Shown: one piece after another, positions 2,949 through 49,228 of the stretch | Layout of the letters: each line of letters opens with the position of its first letter | Numbering within the stretch: position 1 is the stretch's first letter | Virus record (IMG/VR): IMGVR_UViG_3300028738_000014 | Source: a virus | Reading direction: 5' to 3' (one strand) | Length of the DNA: 64,000 nt | Translations under genes and position numbers: made by a program | The notes under the pieces: generated by a model | Seen by the model: the letters and a program-made list of their open reading frames with translations, nothing else | Databases searched by the model: none | Told to the model about the DNA's origin: nothing

Positions 2949-3233
2949 ATGATAGTTGCAAATGTTTCCGGAAATGAAGTTCTTTATAATGAAATTACGA
3001 AACAGTGGCATTTTATAGATGGTACAATTTCAGATAAAAATAATATTCGAGGTTGTGTTCGATGTGGAAAACTACCTACTGTTGATGGTCATGATTCGTG
3101 TATTGCAAATTTACCTGGAGTTAAAAATGCTTGTTGTGGACATGGTGTAGAGGATGGATATATTCAATTTGAAAATGGATTGGTATTAAGAGGCAGATTT
3201 TCTGTAGATCAAGATATAAAAACAATATCATAA
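2949..3233 (+). CDS. small Cys-rich protein, CxRCG...ACCGHG family (paralogue 1 of 3)
   Basis: Motif C-x-RCG-x-PT...D-x-C...ACCGHGV, near-identical to the 48577..48798 product and similar to 20177..20488. Confidence 0.55.
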   Translation: MIVANVSGNEVLYNEITKQWHFIDGTISDKNNIRGCVRCGKLPTVDGHDSCIANLPGVKNACCGHGVEDGYIQFENGLVLRGRFSVDQDIKTIS

Positions 3234-3243
3234 TCAACCAATC

Positions 3244-4071
3244 ATGAGAATATTACATATTGAAAATTATAACTATCCGCTTCCGGAGAGCCTGAATGAG
3301 ATGACAACTGATCAGTTGATATTTCTTTCGAAGTTGGTGGATAAGGTGATTCCTATTCAGGAGGTAAAGGTGAAGATGTTGTTTTGCTGTCTGGGTGCGA
3401 AGGTGAAGCGAATGAAGAATGCAGGGTATTACCGTATCCGGATTGAAAAGTTCGTATTTGCCATGACGGTGGAACAGGTGGCTGAAGTATCCGGTGCGTT
3501 TGATTATTTGTTTACTGATCCGGATAAAGAGGGACGTTGTTTTTTTGACTGCCGGTTAACGGTGAATCCATTCCCGAAAGTGAAGTTAGGATACAGAATA
3601 ATATTTGGTCCTGCCGATGCATTGACTGACATTTGCTATAACCGGTATATTTATCTGGAATCGTATCATTCGGTCATGGAGAATAAACCGGAGGCTGTAT
3701 ATGCTTTTTTGGGATGCTTGTTTACCGACCCGCTCGCGAAAAAGCGAACGGGTCGAAATGAGTTTGATCCGAACAATCTACGCCTGGAACTTATGCAGAA
3801 AATAAAGCCGGAGGTAGTAGTATTGATGTGTTGGTATTACCTGGGAAGTATCCGGTTTATTGCGGATAAGTTTCCACGGATATTTAGTGGTGACGGTGAA
3901 GTAAGTACCGGAAGTGCATACGATGGACAACAGAAACTTATTGACTTTATTGCCAAAGGTGATCCGGCAAAGAAGAGAATGAATAAAGAAGATAATCTAT
4001 ATGATATATTGTATTCGTTGGATTATATGCTGGAGAAAGAGGAAGAGAAGACAACGACCCCCAACCCCTAA
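3244..4071 (+). CDS. hypothetical structural protein
   Basis: ORF; C-terminus TTTPNP is encoded by the hairpin linker, TAA stop = hairpin loop. Confidence 0.5.
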   Translation: MRILHIENYNYPLPESLNEMTTDQLIFLSKLVDKVIPIQEVKVKMLFCCLGAKVKRMKNAGYYRIRIEKFVFAMTVEQVAEVSGAFDYLFTDPDKEGRCFFDCRLTVNPFPKVKLGYRIIFGPADALTDICYNRYIYLESYHSVMENKPEAVYAFLGCLFTDPLAKKRTGRNEFDPNNLRLELMQKIKPEVVVLMCWYYLGSIRFIADKFPRIFSGDGEVSTGSAYDGQQKLIDFIAKGDPAKKRMNKEDNLYDILYSLDYMLEKEEEKTTTPNP

Positions 4072-4095
4072 AGGGGGGTAAGACAAGAGAATAGT
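4052..4095 (+). repeat. GC-hairpin linker copy 2
   Basis: ACGACCCCCAACCCCTAAAGGGGGGTAAGACAAGAGAATAG. Confidence 0.7.
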
Positions 4096-4116
4096 TTGTA
4101 TAGTTTGATTTTTTTC

Positions 4117-4160
4117 GCCCTGTACTGGTCTGTGAAGATAGGTACAGGGTCTTTTTTTTT
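4117..4160 (+). terminator. intrinsic terminator
   Basis: 8-bp stem CCCTGTAC/GTACAGGG followed by T9. Confidence 0.7.
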
Positions 4161-4218
4161 GTTGTTAATAAATTTACATATCTTTGCAGAATAATATTTA
4201 TTAACCCTATAAAATAAA

Positions 4219-4581
4219 ATGTTTATGAAAAAAATTATGTTAGTGGCTGTAATGGTGATGTTTTATTTAAGTATTTTTTCTCAATCACCAACTGATTCGA
4301 TTAAGGCTAAATTTATGTATTGCGAAATTGTAGGCACTGGAAGTTTATTTAGTACTAAAGTAAAGATTGAAATTGATTATGGTCAGGAAGTAAGTTTTTG
4401 GAATCAAGCTAATGGAAGAACATTGAAAGATGAAACGGGAAATTCTATTAAATTTAATTCAATGGTTGATGCGTTGAATTTTATGGGGACTAAAGGATGG
4501 GAGTTTGTTCAGGCATACAACGTGCTTAAATCTAATCAGGATGTATATCATTGGTTATTAAAACAAGAGATAAAAAAATAA
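4219..4581 (+). CDS. secreted/exported small protein (moron)
   Basis: N-terminal hydrophobic signal peptide MKKIMLVAVMVMFYLSIFSQ; own TATCTTTG promoter box at 4181-4188; terminator upstream. Confidence 0.55.
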   Translation: MFMKKIMLVAVMVMFYLSIFSQSPTDSIKAKFMYCEIVGTGSLFSTKVKIEIDYGQEVSFWNQANGRTLKDETGNSIKFNSMVDALNFMGTKGWEFVQAYNVLKSNQDVYHWLLKQEIKK

Positions 4582-4601
4582 ACTTTTAATCATAAAAAAC
4601 T

Positions 4602-5087
4602 ATGATTTGGATTATCATTATCATTACTGTAGCTATGCTTTTTCTTTTTATACAATCAAAAAAACCAGTTTATACAAATGAACCAGAACCGGAACCTTAT
4701 GTCCATCGTGATTTTAGAACTGAGGCTATATTGAGAAATATAGAGTATATGGGTGACCCTGCCAAAGAGGTTGGTGATTTTACTATTGATGTTAAAGGTT
4801 TATTTTATAGAACCAAGAAAGCTCAGTTACGTGCATGTGAACTTGCTGAAACAGAAATATTGTTTTTAGAAATAGACAATAGAAATCAGCATGATAAAAA
4901 TGCTATAAAAGTAAAAACGTTTGATGATATTTTTATTGGATATGTAGATGAATTTTATTCAAAGAAAGTTCGTCAAATGATTGATTCTAATTTTGAAATA
5001 GATTGTTTTGTAAGTTCTGTTTCATTGGATGATATACCATATGTCTCTATGCAATTATATTATTCTGGAAATAAACAACTAATTTAA
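4602..5087 (+). CDS. membrane-anchored protein
   Basis: N-terminal TM segment IWIIIIITVAMLFLFI. Confidence 0.5.
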   Translation: MIWIIIIITVAMLFLFIQSKKPVYTNEPEPEPYVHRDFRTEAILRNIEYMGDPAKEVGDFTIDVKGLFYRTKKAQLRACELAETEILFLEIDNRNQHDKNAIKVKTFDDIFIGYVDEFYSKKVRQMIDSNFEIDCFVSSVSLDDIPYVSMQLYYSGNKQLI

Positions 5088-5167
5088 AAAATAATTGTAT
5101 TTTTATTTGGTAGATAAAAAAAAGTTTCGCACTTTTGCATCGCTGAATACAATTATAGGGCTTTAGG

Positions 5168-5191
5168 CCCACCAAACGAGGTGGTTTTTTT
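5168..5191 (+). terminator. intrinsic terminator
   Basis: CCACC-AAACGA-GGTGG followed by T7. Confidence 0.6.
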
Positions 5192-5277
5192 ATGCCAAAA
5201 AATGAAACTTATTTAAAATATGGCGATGCCATATATCGAGCCGCTTAGAACGGTAATTGCCCTATGGTGTATTCAGC

Positions 5278-5302
5278 AGCGATATATGAGCATCGCTTTT
5301 TT
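5278..5302 (+). terminator. intrinsic terminator
   Basis: AGCGAT-ATATGAGC-ATCGCT followed by T6. Confidence 0.6.
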
Positions 5303-5334
5303 ATGCTCTAAAACTAAATGCTGAATACACCAAA

Positions 5335-5571
5335 ATGACAACAACCACCATCCGCAGGCTACGTCCTGCAAAGCCTGTCAAGGGCAAAACAGTAAGCAGT
5401 GTAGAATCACTTGCCTTTCTGCGTGAATTTTATCTGGAAGTAAAACGCGAAATCAAAAAGCGCGAAACAATTATGATGAATGGCAGTCGTACCCCTGATT
5501 GTGATTCTGTGTCTTTTCTTGGTGAGAACTTTAGCCTGACTATTGATTTTAAAGAAAAATTCAGAGTATGA
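5335..5571 (+). CDS. hypothetical small basic protein
   Basis: ORF; 4-nt overlap with next ORF. Confidence 0.4.
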   Translation: MTTTTIRRLRPAKPVKGKTVSSVESLAFLREFYLEVKREIKKRETIMMNGSRTPDCDSVSFLGENFSLTIDFKEKFRV

Positions 5572-5849
5572 CAATTATCAATGGAATGGAAGTACGCGAC
5601 GAATTGATCGACTTACTTAAGAACTGGGCACCTTATAACGAAGATTGTGAAAGCCATGTTGATTCGGCTATTGAAAGTCTGTTTGAATTAAATGATTATC
5701 TGATCGGTGCCCTGACAGAGGTAGTGACTGATGATATTGTACGAATGAGAGAAATCAGTAATTACCTCATTAACGTGAAATCACTCAAGGATGATTTGAA
5801 AGAATTGAACGGAATATTGAAAGTTTGTAAAATTGAAAGGAAAAAATGA
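5568..5849 (+). CDS. hypothetical protein
   Basis: ORF translationally coupled to 5335..5571. Confidence 0.45.
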   Translation: MTIINGMEVRDELIDLLKNWAPYNEDCESHVDSAIESLFELNDYLIGALTEVVTDDIVRMREISNYLINVKSLKDDLKELNGILKVCKIERKK

Positions 5850-5958
5850 TGATTGAATAGTTAATCATTTATAAATATAAATTGTATATACTTGATTAAC
5901 AATTGATTACATTATCTTTATATCGAAATTAAACTATAAATCTTTTAAATCAATCAAA

Positions 5959-6504
5959 ATGGAAACAAAAATTATTTCATTTGAAGAAAACAACATTACC
6001 TTTTTACTTTCAAAAGATAATGGAATGATGATTAATGCCACCGAAATGGCAAAGATATTTGGTAAACAAGTTAATGAATTCATGTCAAATGAAAGTACAA
6101 TTCTATTTGTTAAAGAAGCTTTAAATAACGGGAATTCCCGTTATATTAACATTTCAAATCAAGATGAATTGTATCGTACGAATCAAAAATCTGGAACATT
6201 TATGCACCGAATTTTAGCTTTGAAATTTGCAGCCTGGTTAAGTCCTAAATTTGAATTATGGATCTATTCCACCATTGAAAAATTACTATTCGGTAAACAC
6301 GTTGACAGGGAACAATCTTTTGAAAGAACATTATCCTTACAGAAGGAATTAGATATTCTGAGAGATAAGCCGAATAAAACAGGTGCAGATTTTGAAAGAT
6401 ACTTAGAAATTCAAACATTGATCCGGAGAGAAAAAACAGTCAGATCGTTGCTTACAAAAGAAAGTATAAATGAAATGGCAGATTTATTCAAAGAACAAGA
6501 ATGA
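5959..6504 (+). CDS. KilA-N/ORF6N-like domain protein (antirepressor-like)
   Basis: N-terminal NATEMAKIFGKQVNEFM resembles the ORF6N/KilA-N motif; followed by terminator. Confidence 0.45.
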   Translation: METKIISFEENNITFLLSKDNGMMINATEMAKIFGKQVNEFMSNESTILFVKEALNNGNSRYINISNQDELYRTNQKSGTFMHRILALKFAAWLSPKFELWIYSTIEKLLFGKHVDREQSFERTLSLQKELDILRDKPNKTGADFERYLEIQTLIRREKTVRSLLTKESINEMADLFKEQE

Positions 6505-24490: not shown

Positions 24491-26119
24491 TTAGTTAAAC
24501 ATATCTGCTAATAAATCGAGAGTACTTTCACTTACTTCATCACTTCCACCCATAACGGCGTTGGCGATTCCTTTTTTTGTTTGAATTATTTGATAAACAC
24601 GTTCGTCAATTGTATTTCTACCTGAGAAATACCGTGCTGTAACACTGTCCTTCTGTCCCATACGGTGTGCCCGGTCCTCGCATTGGCAACAATCTGCATC
24701 AGTCCAGGGAAACTCAACAAACGAAACATCTGAACTGGCGGTAAGCGTTAGACCGACTCCGGCAGCTTTAATCGAGCAAATGATAATATTTGTTTTAGAA
24801 CTATTTTGAAAACTATCAACGGCTCTCTGTTTTTGTTCTTGATTTTCCCTTCCTGTTACACATACGGACGATGGAAAAGCGTGTTTAAGTTGATCAACTA
24901 CGATATGAAGAGAGCAAAATATAATCATCTTTTTTCCACTTAGCTGGAAGTCCTTTACGCAGTCTATAACCTCTTTTACTTTCCCTCTTGCAGTAATTTG
25001 TCTAAGTAGAGTTAACCGGACCATTGCAGCACTTTTGAGTGCATTTTTTATATTTTTATCAGTTGCTTCTTTATACTTCTTAAGATATTCTTTCAAATTA
25101 TTTTCAGCGAACTGGTATTCTTCACGGTTACTAATCTCAACTGTTACAAGTTGTCGAACTTTTGCGGGCAACTCTTTTAATACTTTTGCTTTTTCCCTTC
25201 GGAACATGCAATTTTCGTAAAGCATTGCGCTCAATACTTTCAAATTTGATGATTCGGTAGGACCGGCACAGAATTGTTTTTGAAAATTAATGGATCCACC
25301 AAAATCATTAAGCCGGCCAATGATTGAAAGTTGTGGTACCAGGTCCTTTGGTTTATTTACAATCGGGGTTCCTGTTAATCCGATTACATAATCTTTCCCT
25401 TGTGCTATTCCTTTGCAATAATTACTTTGTTGAGTAGAAGAAGATTTACAGCGGTGTATTTCATCAATAATGACCGACTTAAAAATCTTCACATTCTCCT
25501 TAAAAATCACATTTTTGAGTGAAAAATGCTCTGATTGTTTTTCATGCAATACAAAGTATTTCTTCAAAGATTCGTAATTGACTATGAAAACCTGATAAAT
25601 ACCCTGGTTAAAGTAATAAGGCCAATTATCACGCATTTCATCGGTTAATATCATTGCCTTTTTATCGGTAAACTTTGACCATTCACGCTCCCAATTGATC
25701 TTTAAAGAACTTGGACAAATAATAAGACAAGGGAATGATTGCGCTATGTTGATTGTTGCAATGCTTTGCATACTTTTTCCAAGGCCAGGCTCATCGGCAT
25801 TAATGCACCTCTTTAAAACAAGTCCTCTTGCTATTCCTTTGAGTTGATAGTCGCGCGGCTTTAGCTTTAATTGATGCGGAACCAATAAATCTGGCATTTC
25901 AGACTCAATACTTTTCTTTTGCCAATCAACCGGTCCAAATCCTTTAGCACATTCAGCGTAATGTTGAAGTTGAGCTAAAGAGGAGCGGGGTACATTCCAG
26001 GTCTTTAAACTTGGAATGTATTTTGCCCCCTCAATCTTCTTTATTTCACTTGACAATCTTGGATGAAAGTCAAATTCAACAATATATAAATCCGTTGATA
26101 TGTCAAGTTGTATAGTCAT
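24491..26119 (-). CDS. SNF2-family helicase (paralogue 1)
   Basis: Motif I DEPGLGKSMQSIA, motif II DEIHRCKS, C-terminal helicase motifs (QCEDRAHRMGQ). Confidence 0.8.
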   Translation of the reverse strand: MTIQLDISTDLYIVEFDFHPRLSSEIKKIEGAKYIPSLKTWNVPRSSLAQLQHYAECAKGFGPVDWQKKSIESEMPDLLVPHQLKLKPRDYQLKGIARGLVLKRCINADEPGLGKSMQSIATINIAQSFPCLIICPSSLKINWEREWSKFTDKKAMILTDEMRDNWPYYFNQGIYQVFIVNYESLKKYFVLHEKQSEHFSLKNVIFKENVKIFKSVIIDEIHRCKSSSTQQSNYCKGIAQGKDYVIGLTGTPIVNKPKDLVPQLSIIGRLNDFGGSINFQKQFCAGPTESSNLKVLSAMLYENCMFRREKAKVLKELPAKVRQLVTVEISNREEYQFAENNLKEYLKKYKEATDKNIKNALKSAAMVRLTLLRQITARGKVKEVIDCVKDFQLSGKKMIIFCSLHIVVDQLKHAFPSSVCVTGRENQEQKQRAVDSFQNSSKTNIIICSIKAAGVGLTLTASSDVSFVEFPWTDADCCQCEDRAHRMGQKDSVTARYFSGRNTIDERVYQIIQTKKGIANAVMGGSDEVSESTLDLLADMFN

Positions 26120-26760
26120 TAGATAACAGGTTCGAGTACTAAACCTGATCCTTCAAGTACCGTTTCAAGTTCTTCAAGTTTTTTCTTTCTCTTGCCATGA
26201 CCTTTAATGATAAGATTACCATTAATCCCTGAAGCAGCATTAGAAAGTTCAATAGTCGCTTCGTTGGCTTTATCAAATTCAAATTCCTGTTGTTTTATAC
26301 CGAACTTATCATGAAAAAGATATTGATCTACTTCGTACGAACACATTTGAACATCCTGTCCAAGTTCTTCAGAGAATTCATAATCATCCTCGTACTTTGT
26401 AAAAGGAGCGATAAGATTCAGCACTTTTCCTGACTTGAGCAATTTTTGACCGATAATTGTCACACCTTCATGTTCGTCAGTTCCACCAATCACATAACCT
26501 GTGATCACATAATTATCCAATTGACTGATATCAAAATCACTGATTGTAGCGTGAGAGATTAAACTCATTTCAGGCTGCTCACATAACATTACTAAATGCA
26601 CTTTCATGCGATTAAACGAAGCGAGAAGATCAGCATGAATAATTCCGCTACAATCCTTGTTAACGGTATTAATATCAGTTGCTGTGTTCTCTTTAAAGAT
26701 CACGTTACAACGATCGTTTTTGATAGTCGCTTTACTAATTTCATTTTTTGTTACTTCCAT
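26119..26760 (-). CDS. hypothetical protein
   Basis: ORF; start overlaps helicase. Confidence 0.45.
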   Translation of the reverse strand: MEVTKNEISKATIKNDRCNVIFKENTATDINTVNKDCSGIIHADLLASFNRMKVHLVMLCEQPEMSLISHATISDFDISQLDNYVITGYVIGGTDEHEGVTIIGQKLLKSGKVLNLIAPFTKYEDDYEFSEELGQDVQMCSYEVDQYLFHDKFGIKQQEFEFDKANEATIELSNAASGINGNLIIKGHGKRKKKLEELETVLEGSGLVLEPVI

Positions 26761-26788
26761 AAAATTTATTTTGTTTAAAATTGAATTG

Positions 26789-26912
26789 TGGTGTGTACAG
26801 GATTCGAACCTGCACGTGTTCCTTTTCCAGTTTATTACGAGGGCTCGAACCTCGTCACACGTTAGCTATATTTCAAGCCTACTGTTGCGTCTACCAATTC
26901 CGCCAACACACC
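26789..26912 (-). ncRNA. 124-nt tRNA-like gene (type-II Leu/Ser-like arms with about 50-nt internal insertion)
   Basis: Minus-strand transcript has a perfect 7-bp acceptor GGUGUGU/ACACACC, D-arm GCGGAAUUGGUAGACGC identical to bacterial tRNA-Leu, T-arm GCAGG-UUCGAAU-CCUGU and a second GGUUCGAGCC hairpin; no canonical anticodon arm found. Confidence 0.5.
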
Positions 26913-26918
26913 GATTTA

Positions 26919-27152
26919 CTAAATATCTAACCACATTGCATTTGAAAAAGCAGATCGACCACAGACAGTACAGCATACACTACCACCACGTATCTCTTTT
27001 TCATACTTAACTTGATTATCGGGGGTATCAGGAACTTCTTCTTCATCTGAAAGAATTAGTACTAATCCATCCTCATTGCAAGTATGATCGGTAGGTTGTC
27101 CACCACACATGAAAGCTGTAGATGTTTCGCTTAATTGAATTATTTCACACAT
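26919..27152 (-). CDS. small Cys-rich protein
   Basis: C-x3-C...CC-x2-CG motifs. Confidence 0.4.
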   Translation of the reverse strand: MCEIIQLSETSTAFMCGGQPTDHTCNEDGLVLILSDEEEVPDTPDNQVKYEKEIRGGSVCCTVCGRSAFSNAMWLDI

Positions 27153-27936: not shown

Positions 27937-29625
27937 TTATTTTAATGAAAATAAATTTATAATTGAGTCAATAGTAGATTCTTCAGTATTATCAACAGCC
28001 CCCGTACATGCTGAACTCATTTCGCGCTTATCATTTATAACCTGGTAAATATCTTCATCAATCGTATTTTTACCTAAGAAATAAGATATCTGTACAGCGT
28101 TTTTCTGACTAATACGGTGACAACGGTCTTCACATTGATCGGTATCGGCTGAATGCCATGGAAGCTCAATAAATGCCACGCGTGAAGCTGCTGTAAGGGT
28201 AATACCAACACCACCGGCTTTGTAGTTTACGAATATCAAATTATGATCGGTGGGAACAAATTCATGATCAGAATTAGAATGCCTTTCATATCGAGTATCA
28301 CAGACAGTACAGCGTTGGAATTTATGTATATTAGTATTCCTTTTTTCTGAACTTTCCGAACCGGTATAAAATAATGCAGTTGGATAGTAGCTTCTTAGTA
28401 CATCGGCCACCTCATTAAGATAGATGAACACGACAATCTTTTCACCGGATTCAAGTACATCATCAATATATTCCTTCACATCAGCAAGTTTTCCACGTGC
28501 CGAAATGTTTTTAAGTACTCCTATCTGAACCATTATTTTACCCTTCATACTTTTTGCAATCTGAGGTTCAGTTGCTTTTCGATATTCTCTCAAATAACTT
28601 TCAAGATCTGCCATTGCAGCATCGTATTCAGGTTGATTTGAAATATTGCAAAATACCTTTTGTCGAAATTTATCAGGTAACTCTTTGAGTACATCTTTCT
28701 TTTCTCTTCTGAAATAGCATTTATTCCGGAGTATTGAATTAATTTCCGGCCAACGCTCTTCATCGGCACACATTTCACGAAATGCAACGGATCCACCAAA
28801 CTCTTTCAGTTTATCAATGATCATAAGTTGAAACATTAGATCAACCGGTTTATTTACAATCGGGGTACCGCTGAGTAACTGGGTGAACTTACCTAATGCT
28901 ATCCCGTAGGATAATTTACTTTGTCGTGTTGTTTTATCTTTTACCCTGTGACTTTCATCGATAATTACCGATTTGAAAACATTTATACTTGGAAGAAAAT
29001 TAATGTGTTTAAGTAGCATTGTTTCCCCTTTTGGGGTCTCAATATTCAAAACGAAATACTTCTGTATTGATTCATAGTTGACGATAAATACATCATATAC
29101 ACCCATGTTATAAAATGTTTCCCAGGTGTGCTTTATTGAATCCGTAAGTATAACCGGTTTATGATCGGAGCAAAGTTTCCATTCCATTTCCCAGTTCAAT
29201 TTTAAAGAAGCCGGGCAAATAATAAGACAGGGAAATTCATTTTTAGCTATAACCGTTGCGATGCTTTGAAGAGTCTTTCCAAGTCCAGGAGCATCCCCAT
29301 TGATACAGCTACCGTGTTCAATCCCGTAAGCAATACCTTCTTTTTGATAATCGTAAGGTTTTAGCTTAAGATCAATATTTTGATTAAGCTTTGGCATTTC
29401 AGCAGGTGCATCGAAAACACGACGTTTTGAAATCTTTCCAGTCATATCAAAAGCATATTTCTGAGCGAACATCTGAACTTCAAATTCCCAACGGCGTGGA
29501 AGTTCCCAACGCTTCAATTTCGAATCATAATTTACATCCGGAAGTTTGGCTACAGCTGCCGATATCTTCCGATCGTAATCAAACTGAATTAAATACTTAT
29601 TTTCTTTTTCAACTACTATTCTCAT
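27937..29625 (-). CDS. SNF2-family helicase (paralogue 2)
   Basis: GDAPGLGKTLQSIA, DESHRVKD, QCEDRCHRISQ; start set at MRIVVEK by alignment with paralogue 1; track extends to 29655. Confidence 0.75.
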   Translation of the reverse strand: MRIVVEKENKYLIQFDYDRKISAAVAKLPDVNYDSKLKRWELPRRWEFEVQMFAQKYAFDMTGKISKRRVFDAPAEMPKLNQNIDLKLKPYDYQKEGIAYGIEHGSCINGDAPGLGKTLQSIATVIAKNEFPCLIICPASLKLNWEMEWKLCSDHKPVILTDSIKHTWETFYNMGVYDVFIVNYESIQKYFVLNIETPKGETMLLKHINFLPSINVFKSVIIDESHRVKDKTTRQSKLSYGIALGKFTQLLSGTPIVNKPVDLMFQLMIIDKLKEFGGSVAFREMCADEERWPEINSILRNKCYFRREKKDVLKELPDKFRQKVFCNISNQPEYDAAMADLESYLREYRKATEPQIAKSMKGKIMVQIGVLKNISARGKLADVKEYIDDVLESGEKIVVFIYLNEVADVLRSYYPTALFYTGSESSEKRNTNIHKFQRCTVCDTRYERHSNSDHEFVPTDHNLIFVNYKAGGVGITLTAASRVAFIELPWHSADTDQCEDRCHRISQKNAVQISYFLGKNTIDEDIYQVINDKREMSSACTGAVDNTEESTIDSIINLFSLK

Positions 29626-30269
29626 GGTCTTCCGTTTCCAAAAAATAAATGCCATTTGTAGGCTAATTCTAAATACTTTTGTTTCCCTTCTAAGTAGAAG
29701 TCTGATTCTTTATTTATAAATATTTTGAAGACTTTGTGATTTTTCTTCGAAATTCCTATTATCACATCTCTATCAGCTCCTTCAATGTCCATATACCATG
29801 CACGTGAGCGATCGTATTGAAAGAATTTACAAGCTGCTTCAAACTGCATCTGTGTTTCGGCAGCCGTACTCTTTATATCGCCTCCCCATTTCCAGTCATC
29901 CCGCCAAATATCCCACTTACATCTCCGATCGAGTTCAAATTCAACACCATTAAAATTCATTAACGCATTGCGCTGGATACTTATTTTTTGTGCATTTGCT
30001 CCACTCATTAGGTCAGAACAGAAAGGATCCCGCCAAAAGGCTTGTTTCATTTTAATGGTATTCTCAAAAGTTGCCTTTTTATAAATCACATCTTCCCGGG
30101 TTCTTTTGAAATAATCAACCTTATAAGATTCGGTTATCATGGCATCAAGAAGATTTCCATCGGCAAAGGCTTGTGTAGGATCCATCGGGTTTGATTTCGG
30201 ATTGAGTTGGTCCAATAACCAACCCAAATCCGAATTTGATACTTCAGGACGTTTAAAATAAGCGTCCAT
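29622..30269 (-). CDS. putative PD-(D/E)XK recombination nuclease
   Basis: GGDIKST (D-x-K) and upstream Asp residues; position next to RecT-like gene. Confidence 0.4.
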   Translation of the reverse strand: MDAYFKRPEVSNSDLGWLLDQLNPKSNPMDPTQAFADGNLLDAMITESYKVDYFKRTREDVIYKKATFENTIKMKQAFWRDPFCSDLMSGANAQKISIQRNALMNFNGVEFELDRRCKWDIWRDDWKWGGDIKSTAAETQMQFEAACKFFQYDRSRAWYMDIEGADRDVIIGISKKNHKVFKIFINKESDFYLEGKQKYLELAYKWHLFFGNGRP

Positions 30270-48994: not shown

Positions 48995-49067
48995 GCCTTT
49001 TTAGCTCAGTTGGTAGAGCGATTGCCTTGTAAGCAATAGGTCGTACGTTCGAATCGTACCGGAGGCT
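48995..49067 (+). tRNA. tRNA-Thr (anticodon UGU)
   Basis: Cloverleaf: D-arm GCTC-AGTTGGTAG-AGCG, anticodon arm ATTGC-CTTGTAA-GCAAT, T-arm GTACG-TTCGAAT-CGTAC; acceptor has two G-U pairs and one mismatch. Confidence 0.65.
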
Positions 49068-49228
49068 CAAAACCAAAAGAAAAGGGGATTTTGAAAGTAG
49101 TTGAAATTTATTGGTATCTGATCAATACCTTTGAATTAATATTATTTTTTGTAAAGCTAACAAAATAGGAATCCCCGCCGAACTACTGCCAACATGCAGA
49201 CGAACTGTAATAAAAGAGCTTTAAACAA

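Follow-up and report, generated by a model that had tools for sequence, protein, structure and literature searches.

The 64,000-nucleotide (nt) stretch of viral DNA analysed here (IMG/VR virus record IMGVR_UViG_3300028738_000014; hereafter the window) carries, at 26789-26912 on its minus strand, a conserved, structured RNA gene of 124 nt that does not decode. The element has the intact top half and core of a tRNA, lies within an operon and is followed by the 3′ flank of a tRNA gene, and it belongs to a large, phage-enriched family of tRNA-like RNAs that is nearly confined to phages and prophages. It is probable, in our view, that in this small, non-decoding RNA a class II (leucine-type) tRNA chassis serves as the carrier and the centre as the working part. 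The evidence comes from the structure of the element, from its conservation in related phages, and from the combination, across the family, of a constant chassis with centres that are exchanged as cassettes.

Results

A leucine-type tRNA chassis without an anticodon arm

The reverse complement of 26789-26912 reads GGUGUGU-UG-GCGGAAUUGGUAGACGC-(73 nt)-GCAGGUUCGAAUCCUGU-ACACACC-A, and RNA positions are given here as 26913 minus the window coordinate. The Rfam tRNA model matches exactly this interval, end to end, with 37.8 bits against a gathering score of 29 (E = 2.3e-4 when the whole 64-kb window was searched against all 4,227 families, E = 1.1e-6 when the region alone was searched), and its alignment accommodates two insertions, of 51 nt and 10 nt, within the anticodon/variable region. 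No other family matched. ARAGORN, run on the window, called only a tRNA-Thr(UGU) elsewhere and left the element without a call. Both programs had been suggested as checks in a first-pass annotation of the sequence, whose description of the chassis holds in each part: the acceptor is a perfect helix of seven base pairs (bp), with U-A at position 3-70; the T-arm is canonical; and the D-arm, GGCGGAAUUGGUAGACGC, is the same as in ordinary-looking tRNA-Leu genes of other contigs (e.g., L115, L134 and L143). These ordinary-looking genes, taken from the scaffold scan described below, are 78-85 nt long and have UAA or UAG at the anticodon position.

The central 73 nt had been said to lack a normal anticodon arm, and sequence inspection agrees: no arm with a 5-bp stem, a 7-nt loop, U33 and a purine at position 37 can be placed directly after position 26. 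The only hairpin in the element with the shape of an anticodon arm starts 31 nt past the D-stem and fits a T-loop equally well. A canonical decoding tRNA was rejected on these grounds and on length, since the acceptor, D- and T-arms and the elbow nucleotides are present but the anticodon arm is not, and the RNA has 124 nt as against about 72-95 nt for tRNAs of that kind. In the minimum-energy and consensus folds alike, the centre opens with an unpaired leader and a first hairpin, which occupies the position of the anticodon arm but has a 4-bp stem and an 8-nt loop. A 6-bp ACGUGU/ACACGU helix (RNA 51-56 with 94-99) then abuts the T-stem and encloses a second, T-arm-like hairpin, GGUUCGAGCC, which the first-pass annotation had already recognised, as it had the CUUGAAA motif at RNA positions 36-42. 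The 4-bp CAGU/ACUG helix that it also proposed can be drawn from the sequence, where CAGU of the leader could pair with ACUG of the A-rich segment (RNA 29-32 with 82-85), but it is absent from both folds, which prefer ACGUGU/ACACGU; the two helices would cross as a pseudoknot.

Conservation in a diverged relative and at the syntenic site

In many samples the identical phage is found again, its element unchanged, with the source of JGI sample 3300029983 as one example, and contigs L312 and L313 carry identical copies. One diverged relative, contig L146, has the element at the same site beside a neighbour protein that is 79% identical. Between the window and L146, identity is 95.2% in the element, as against 69.8% in the adjacent gene, 54.9% in the helicase and 46% in the 100 nt upstream. 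Each of the six differences in the element falls at a structurally neutral site: a single change in the variable portion of the D-loop, another in the hairpin 1 loop (U to G), the compensatory replacement of the G60-C74 pair of hairpin 2 by A-U, and changes in the T-loop at positions 57 and 59 only. This is what an RNA under structural selection would show, and it excludes a pseudogene. A degenerate fragment without conservation in related phages, which the first-pass annotation had named as the contrary outcome, is not what was found, and all stems are intact (Table 1).

Relatives of the 213-amino acid (aa) protein encoded next to the element were recovered from viral contigs by an alignment-based search, where a single-protein search gave none. 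Among 165 related loci, 14 hold an element at the site syntenic with that of the window, and their centres, of 94-145 nt, are of six unrelated kinds; the remaining loci, close relatives included, have no element there. With other centres or none at the same site in relatives, the centre behaves like a cassette that is exchanged while the chassis stays constant. No match to the 900 nt around the element, or to the element alone at E up to 0.01, was found by blastn among 50,697 GenBank phage records, and exact-pattern scans of the viral contigs with the internal hairpin, with the acceptor plus D-arm, with the A-rich segment and with a gapped pattern of the centre gave zero matches.

Table 1. Parts of the element and the genes on either side of it, in window coordinates
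Feature	Coordinates	Strand	RNA positions	Basis or remark
Whole tRNA-shaped RNA gene, 124 nt	26789..26912	-	1-124	Rfam tRNA full-length match, 37.8 bits
Acceptor stem, 5′ strand, GGUGUGU	26906..26912	-	1-7	Seven Watson-Crick pairs with 26790-26796
Leu-type D-arm, GCGGAAUUGGUAGACGC	26887..26903	-	10-26	Preceded by U8 G9; identical to D-arms of ordinary-looking tRNA-Leu
Unpaired leader, AACAGUA (includes CAGU)	26880..26886	-	27-33	Unpaired in minimum-energy and consensus folds
Hairpin 1, GGCU-UGAAAUAU-AGCU	26864..26879	-	34-49	Minimum-energy and consensus folds
Long helix, 5′ strand, ACGUGU	26857..26862	-	51-56	Pairs with 26814-26819 in both folds; invariant
Hairpin 2, GGUUCGAGCC (ACGAGG-UUCGAGC-CCUCGU), T-arm-like	26837..26855	-	58-76	G60-C74 replaced by A-U in L146
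A-rich internal segment, AAUAAACUGGAAAAGGA (includes ACUG)	26820..26836	-	77-93	Invariant between window and L146
Long helix, 3′ strand, ACACGU	26814..26819	-	94-99	U99 is at the position of U48
T-arm, GCAGG-UUCGAAU-CCUGU	26797..26813	-	100-116	Rfam match and fold; basal G-U pair
Acceptor 3′ strand, ACACACC, and discriminator A	26789..26796	-	117-124	Sequence
3′ trailer, CAA; CCA not encoded	26786..26788	-		CAA follows 52 of 118 listed family elements
77-aa open reading frame (ORF), upstream	26919..27152	-		Ends TAG TAA 6 nt before the element; no family match
213-aa ORF, downstream, phrog_9513	26119..26760	-		Starts 28 nt past the element; marks the syntenic site in relatives

A phage-enriched family with a shared chassis

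The family was collected with a pattern made up of the Leu-type D-loop and the T-loop only, 60-90 nt apart, a distance too wide for normal tRNA-Leu; the counts that follow rest on at least 118 viral contigs among the matches listed. Several features that the pattern does not demand are nevertheless conserved. A perfect 7-bp acceptor occurs in about 95 of the 118, U8 G9 and the U that precedes the T-stem (position 48) in 114 each, and the discriminator is A in 95. Most members have a C after the discriminator, as do most genuine tRNAs of the same contigs, in which AA or TA then follows. In an alignment of 75 distinct scaffolds and the window, made with the centres cut out, 94.5% of cells are paired, whereas sliding the partners by 1-3 columns leaves only 32-43% paired. 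Changes on both sides are seen in every one of the seven acceptor pairs and in the three T-stem pairs that the pattern leaves free, and the observed score was reached by none of 500 shuffles. The D-arm is nearly invariant across hosts of several phyla, an invariance that the search pattern partly imposed. The window element has every feature of the family: the 7-bp acceptor, U8 G9, the Leu-type D-arm, U48, the GGTTCRA T-arm, an anticodon-less centre of at least 45 nt, and C after the discriminator. ARAGORN made no call for any element in the 32 family loci on which it was run.

The same pattern found only 27 loci in bacterial and archaeal genomes taken one per species (185,579 species), mostly in Bacteroidota, and the loci examined lie in prophages. 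In Sphingobacterium griseoflavum (CGMCC 1.12966, L141) the element stands between a KilA-N gene and an ERF recombinase with an exonuclease, adjoining an S24 repressor; in S. paludis (CGMCC 1.12801, L144) it stands beside terminase and portal genes. A prophage of S. cellulitidis R-53603 has a family member as well (L136). Family elements occur in early recombination/replication modules in three unrelated settings. The commonest scaffold had no match in the GenBank phage records.

More than one scaffold match was found at 23 loci, where mostly two or three long elements with different centres lie together, some of them 5-17 nt apart. Chassis of other than leucine type can carry long inserts as well (L005, L045 and L051), with a closing helix at the position of the anticodon stem and then a normal 5-nt variable loop. 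A 2.7-kb contig of a metagenome-assembled genome (MAG; L138, 100-2054, minus strand) encodes two tRNAs with CAU anticodons and a tmRNA (104.5 bits), followed by four or more long tRNA-like elements whose chassis differ in isotype, with one centre type on three chassis types. It also holds a mini tRNA-like element of about 58 nt that has no D-arm, and six copies of the motif GAGACGAY-N8-10-GTTATC, which fall inside centres and between elements. On the viral contig L010, about 150 nt upstream of an element with a Leu chassis, ARAGORN called a candidate tmRNA (2992-3315) whose tag would have 24 residues.

Diverse, structured centres

Among the matches listed, 116 distinct elements have a centre of at least 45 nt, and these centres fall into 92 classes, 76 of them singletons, with no similarity detectable between classes. 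A single acceptor sequence, AGTCAGG, carries 34 centre classes. Conversely, the same centre class is found on different acceptors and in MAGs of different phyla (e.g., Chlorobiaceae and Desulfobulbus). Members of a class differ by 1-7 compensatory pairs in their predicted helices, where few pairs are broken. A common layout, into which the window element fits, begins with an unpaired leader (0-22 nt) and sometimes a first hairpin; the rest is a long helix or a domain of several hairpins, which stops 0-2 nt short of the T-stem. Pairing of the strand that adjoins the T-stem is enriched across the family (p = 1e-4); pairing of the leader with the interior, as in a general pseudoknot, was not enriched across the family (p = 0.07). 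Hairpins resembling an anticodon arm occur in 7 of the 92 classes, compared with 5.4 ± 2.3 in shuffled centres, so they are not enriched.

One centre class is itself tRNA-like. In elements of about 175-184 nt with the acceptor GCTTTGG (L007, L070, L081, L085, L114 and L140, with one copy in a Prevotella MAG), the Leu-type chassis encloses a further D-arm-like segment, GTAATGGTAGCAC, together with a further GGTTCGAATCC T-arm. Two cultured Sphingobacterium species share another class (L141, 5271-5382; L144, 6458-6569) on the acceptors GGAGAGA and GGAAAGA, with a compensatory-pair difference; a related centre sits on an AGTCAGG chassis in the viral contig L009, and all of them share the motifs GTTGAAACGC and GAATAGTATCCGAATA. 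In the permissive Rfam scans, two chance-level matches were dropped: one to wcaG on the opposite strand (E = 0.49) and one to preQ1 (E = 8.4), in which the A-rich segment of the window element weakly, and without significance, resembles a preQ1 tail.

Genomic setting

The element lies on the same strand as all its neighbours and, at 48% G+C, stands out from a surrounding region of about 35%. Two SNF2-type helicases and a PDDEXK exonuclease flank the block of small genes that contains it and mark this block as a phage replication and recombination module. The helicases are paralogues (SNF2 family, both phrog_62; 24491-26119 and 27937-29655, minus strand), and their bracketing arrangement is kept in relatives L147 and L148, from which the element is absent. 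In L146 the SNF2 helicase downstream of the element (3615-6302) has 895 aa, as against 542 aa in the window, and a faint LAGLIDADG match suggests an intein or homing-endonuclease insertion. A scan made without a Bacteroidota promoter model found promoter-like sites at chance frequency and no terminator-like site that would belong to the element itself. The host is placed in Bacteroidota by the homologues of the 213-aa protein, which are found in Prolixibacteraceae, Gaoshiqia, Proteiniphilum and Bacteroides. The neighbouring proteins gave no match of note against PDB or with PADLOC. Elsewhere in the window, the tRNA-Thr(UGU) at 48995-49068 (plus strand) has a U7-C66 mismatch at the base of its acceptor, U as discriminator and, like the element, a CAA trailer.

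In relatives of the window phage, genes 1-2 kb upstream of the site of the element specify either the anti-Gabija protein Gad2 (PF26128) or a protein of metallo-beta-lactamase fold that weakly matches Apyc1 (anti-Pycsar) (L146, 915-1517; L315, 1-84; L149, 958-1704). Some relatives thus have an anti-defence neighbourhood in this region.

Discussion

Proposed route from operon transcript to working RNA

Because the element lies inside a run of genes on the same strand without a signal of its own, it would be transcribed as part of the early replication/recombination operon. The acceptor/T minihelix, the D-loop/T-loop elbow, U8, U48 and the tRNA-type 3′ flank are all retained, and release by the tRNA enzymes of the host is therefore expected: RNase P would cut at the 5′ end, 3′ trimming and CCA addition would follow, and a stable RNA of about 125 nt would be released from the operon transcript. 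The chassis might then be leucylated by leucyl-tRNA synthetase (LeuRS). In place of the anticodon and variable arms such an RNA would present the 73-nt centre, predicted to form a short hairpin and then a long helix that encloses a T-loop-like hairpin and an A-rich segment. This centre would be the working part, most likely by folding into a domain to which a factor of the host or the phage binds. Its exchange for unrelated centres, or its absence, in related phages would be that of accessory or counter-defence cargo, a role that fits the diversity of the centres, their cassette-like exchange, the early accessory location, and the Gad2 and Apyc1-like genes in relatives.

Several observations weigh against this interpretation or narrow it. 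The centre of the window element has one informative relative, in which both the long helix and the CAGU/ACUG pairing are invariant. That the Leu chassis dominates is due in part to sampling with a Leu-type pattern, and non-Leu chassis with long inserts exist. As for a target, a permissive Rfam scan of the element and 20 family loci returned the tRNA model alone, so that no centre family points to one; nor do the centre sequences, since the 80 centre classes compared with their own contigs show no excess complementarity (9.56 versus 9.42 nt). No complement of 11 nt or more to the window centre occurs anywhere in the window either, and an antisense role of the centres was rejected on these two results. 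A conserved protein partner was not found beside the elements, in flank clusters that are dominated by one phage group, and the 45 AGTCAGG loci have almost no flanking proteins in common. Charging, finally, cannot be essential for all members and is unlikely to be a universal purpose, because A73 is absent from 19% of those listed and similar inserts are carried on chassis of other isotypes.

Alternative explanations

Leucylation deserves attention in its own right. Charging by LeuRS requires A73, A15-U48, G18G19, A20a and D/T-loop contacts, and E. coli tRNA-Leu variants that lack both the anticodon and the variable arm are still charged (PMC9976931). The element holds the complete set, with A73 at 26789, A14, A15, G18, G19 and A20a in the D-arm, U8, U48, and U54, U55, C56 and A58 in the T-loop; these nucleotides would be expected to form their usual tertiary contacts. 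Since the set is complete and charging can do without the anticodon and variable arms, leucylation of the element is plausible. It is a further step to suppose that charging by LeuRS is the purpose and that the charged RNA acts in or against translation or another process that depends on aminoacyl-tRNA, whether by titrating LeuRS or EF-Tu, by delivering leucine, or by entering the ribosome as tmRNA does. The near-invariance of the D-arm across hosts of several phyla would agree with such a role, but this was in part imposed by the search. The members without A73 and the appearance of the same kind of insert on other tRNA types, including the single centre type found on three chassis types in L138, speak against it, and we regard it as unlikely. 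The Leu type may be used simply because the class II core tolerates a large extra arm.

The first-pass annotation had raised the possibility of a decoy or repair template directed against anticodon nucleases. In its general form, the chassis, the insert or both would soak up an anticodon or acceptor-stem nuclease that otherwise cuts host tRNAs during infection. Phage tRNAs are known to counter tRNA-targeting nucleases (PMC11555353, PMC10802454). The window centre has CUUGAAA and a UUCGAGC loop with U33/R37 geometry, and both the swapping of cargo and the nearby anti-defence genes fit an arms race. However, the diversity of the centres far exceeds that of tRNA anticodon loops, and mimics of those loops are not enriched over the 92 classes, which argues against nuclease decoys as a general explanation; we judge this account distinctly unlikely.

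It is improbable that the element is purely cis-acting punctuation, whereby its tRNA shape would recruit RNase P between the 77-aa and 213-aa genes and set their relative stability, and the excised RNA would have no function. The arrangement is suggestive, with 6 nt to one ORF, 28 nt to the next, a common strand, and neither promoter nor terminator. Punctuation has no need of a centre, yet the centres are conserved with covariation inside classes and recur on different chassis and in different phyla, and tandem arrays with spacers of 5-17 nt have nothing to punctuate.

An intron-containing or insertion-disrupted tRNA was also among the first suggestions and did not survive. Removal of the centre would have to leave a working tRNA-Leu or tRNA-Ser, and Rfam does align the centre as an insertion in the anticodon region, but no cut point leaves exons from which a 5-bp anticodon stem and a 7-nt loop could be rebuilt. 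Beyond the tRNA model Rfam matches neither the element nor 20 related loci, with no recognisable intron type in the scan (bulge-helix-bulge motifs were not searched explicitly); ARAGORN makes no call, and relatives carry unrelated centres that likewise have no anticodon arms. The centre is, moreover, far shorter than group I introns in tRNA-Leu genes, which are about 250 nt, and the element is conserved at 95% against 70% for the adjacent gene. We consider an intron highly improbable.

A decaying tRNA-Leu pseudogene or insertion-wrecked tRNA gene, although ARAGORN rejects the element and its fold is only mildly more stable than that of shuffled sequence (z = -1.7), is a reading that already fails and to which we give next to no credence, because the element is 95.2% identical where the neighbouring gene is 69.8% and changes only at neutral sites, and in view of the intact stems, the large family with its strong covariation, and chassis acceptors that differ from those of ordinary tRNA-Leu genes in the same contigs.

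What stands, then, is a non-decoding RNA in which a tRNA chassis probably carries a separate working domain. The tRNA-like regulatory RNA of the first-pass annotation is retained as far as a conserved, structured, non-decoding, tRNA-shaped RNA is concerned; nothing marks the element as regulatory.

Comparison with known tRNA-like RNAs

The closest analogue in design is the engineered tRNA scaffold of Ponchon and Dardel for recombinant RNA (PMC3753655, PMC3401473). It too keeps an intact acceptor/D/T framework, replaces the anticodon region by a foreign structured RNA, and is processed and stabilised by host tRNA enzymes, a layout that the natural non-Leu examples L005, L045 and L051 match. The scaffold is a laboratory design, whereas the family is natural, phage-encoded and mostly of class II (Leu), with an insert that ends 0-2 nt before the T-stem, in the position of the variable arm.

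The closest natural analogues are tmRNA, YrlA (PMC4201824), viral tRNA-like structures and the stable RNAs of phage T4. Like the element, tmRNA has a tRNA-like domain with paired 5′ and 3′ ends, can be aminoacylated, has no anticodon arm, and accommodates a large functional insertion between its D and T parts. It differs in its size of about 350 nt, its degenerate D-arm, its alanine identity (G3-U70), its pseudoknots and its tag reading frame, where the element has U-A at 3-70 and a complete Leu-type D-arm. A tmRNA was rejected as the identity of the element on that base pair and in the absence of an ARAGORN or Rfam tmRNA match. YrlA is a non-decoding RNA of bacteria and phages that imitates the acceptor/D/T elbow and carries another functional module. 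Its topology is permuted, in that the tRNA-like part lies inside the molecule and the two RNA ends pair as the Ro-binding stem, whereas the ends of the element form an acceptor stem; the Rfam YrlA model (RF02553) had no match in the window at E up to 10, and this identity was rejected as well.

The T4 species 1 and 2 RNAs (rnaC and rnaD) are likewise phage-encoded stable RNAs, of 119-139 nt, within a tRNA gene cluster, and rnaC ends with a GGTTCGAATCC T-arm and an acceptor-like helix followed by CAA. In contrast to the element, rnaC has no Leu-type D-arm, and its tRNA-like part is confined to the 3′ portion behind a 5′ extension. The Rfam tRNA model scores below threshold on both T4 RNAs, and blastn at E up to 0.01 found no sequence similarity with T4 included in the collection, so they were rejected as homologues and kept as analogues. 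To our knowledge, the function of the species 1 RNA is still unknown. In plant RNA viruses with aminoacylatable tRNA-like structures, in the MALAT1 mascRNA and in the tRNA-miRNA units of gammaherpesviruses, a tRNA shape recruits RNase P, the CCA-adding enzyme and synthetases for non-decoding ends. These cases are eukaryotic; they lie at the ends of transcripts or promote transcription by Pol III, and they are not known to form a family of many interchangeable inserts on a single chassis.

No description of a chassis-plus-variable-insert family was found in Rfam, in the full-text literature searched or in reviews of non-canonical tRNAs. A 2023 survey of viral structured RNAs lists only five candidates that overlap tRNAs, of other isotypes.

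Implications

Mimics of tRNA have so far been known singly, as tmRNA, YrlA, viral tRNA-like structures and the T4 species 1 RNA. Here one conserved chassis carries at least 92 unrelated structured inserts, in early accessory regions and almost always in phages or prophages. Such a family is invisible to protein-centred annotation and to tRNA finders: ARAGORN misses its members entirely, and Infernal-based pipelines may label them as tRNA or tRNA pseudogene. Its members are natural examples of the display of stable folded RNA in bacteria, and the prophage copies in cultured Sphingobacterium strains open the question of their role to experiment.

We raise as a possibility, and only tentatively, that phages mainly of Bacteroidota but also of other phyla maintain an undescribed and diverse library of small RNAs, in which a chargeable Leu-tRNA chassis displays a different folded domain in each member, swapped like a cassette and sometimes arrayed with others. 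The domains could be RNA effectors, aptamer-like inhibitors or decoys that act against host defence or physiology. Were this so, the library would correspond, in natural RNA, to the hypervariable accessory protein genes of phages, and the engineered tRNA scaffold would have a precedent in nature; if the inserts are effectors, the family would represent a large untapped pool of RNA-based phage functions.

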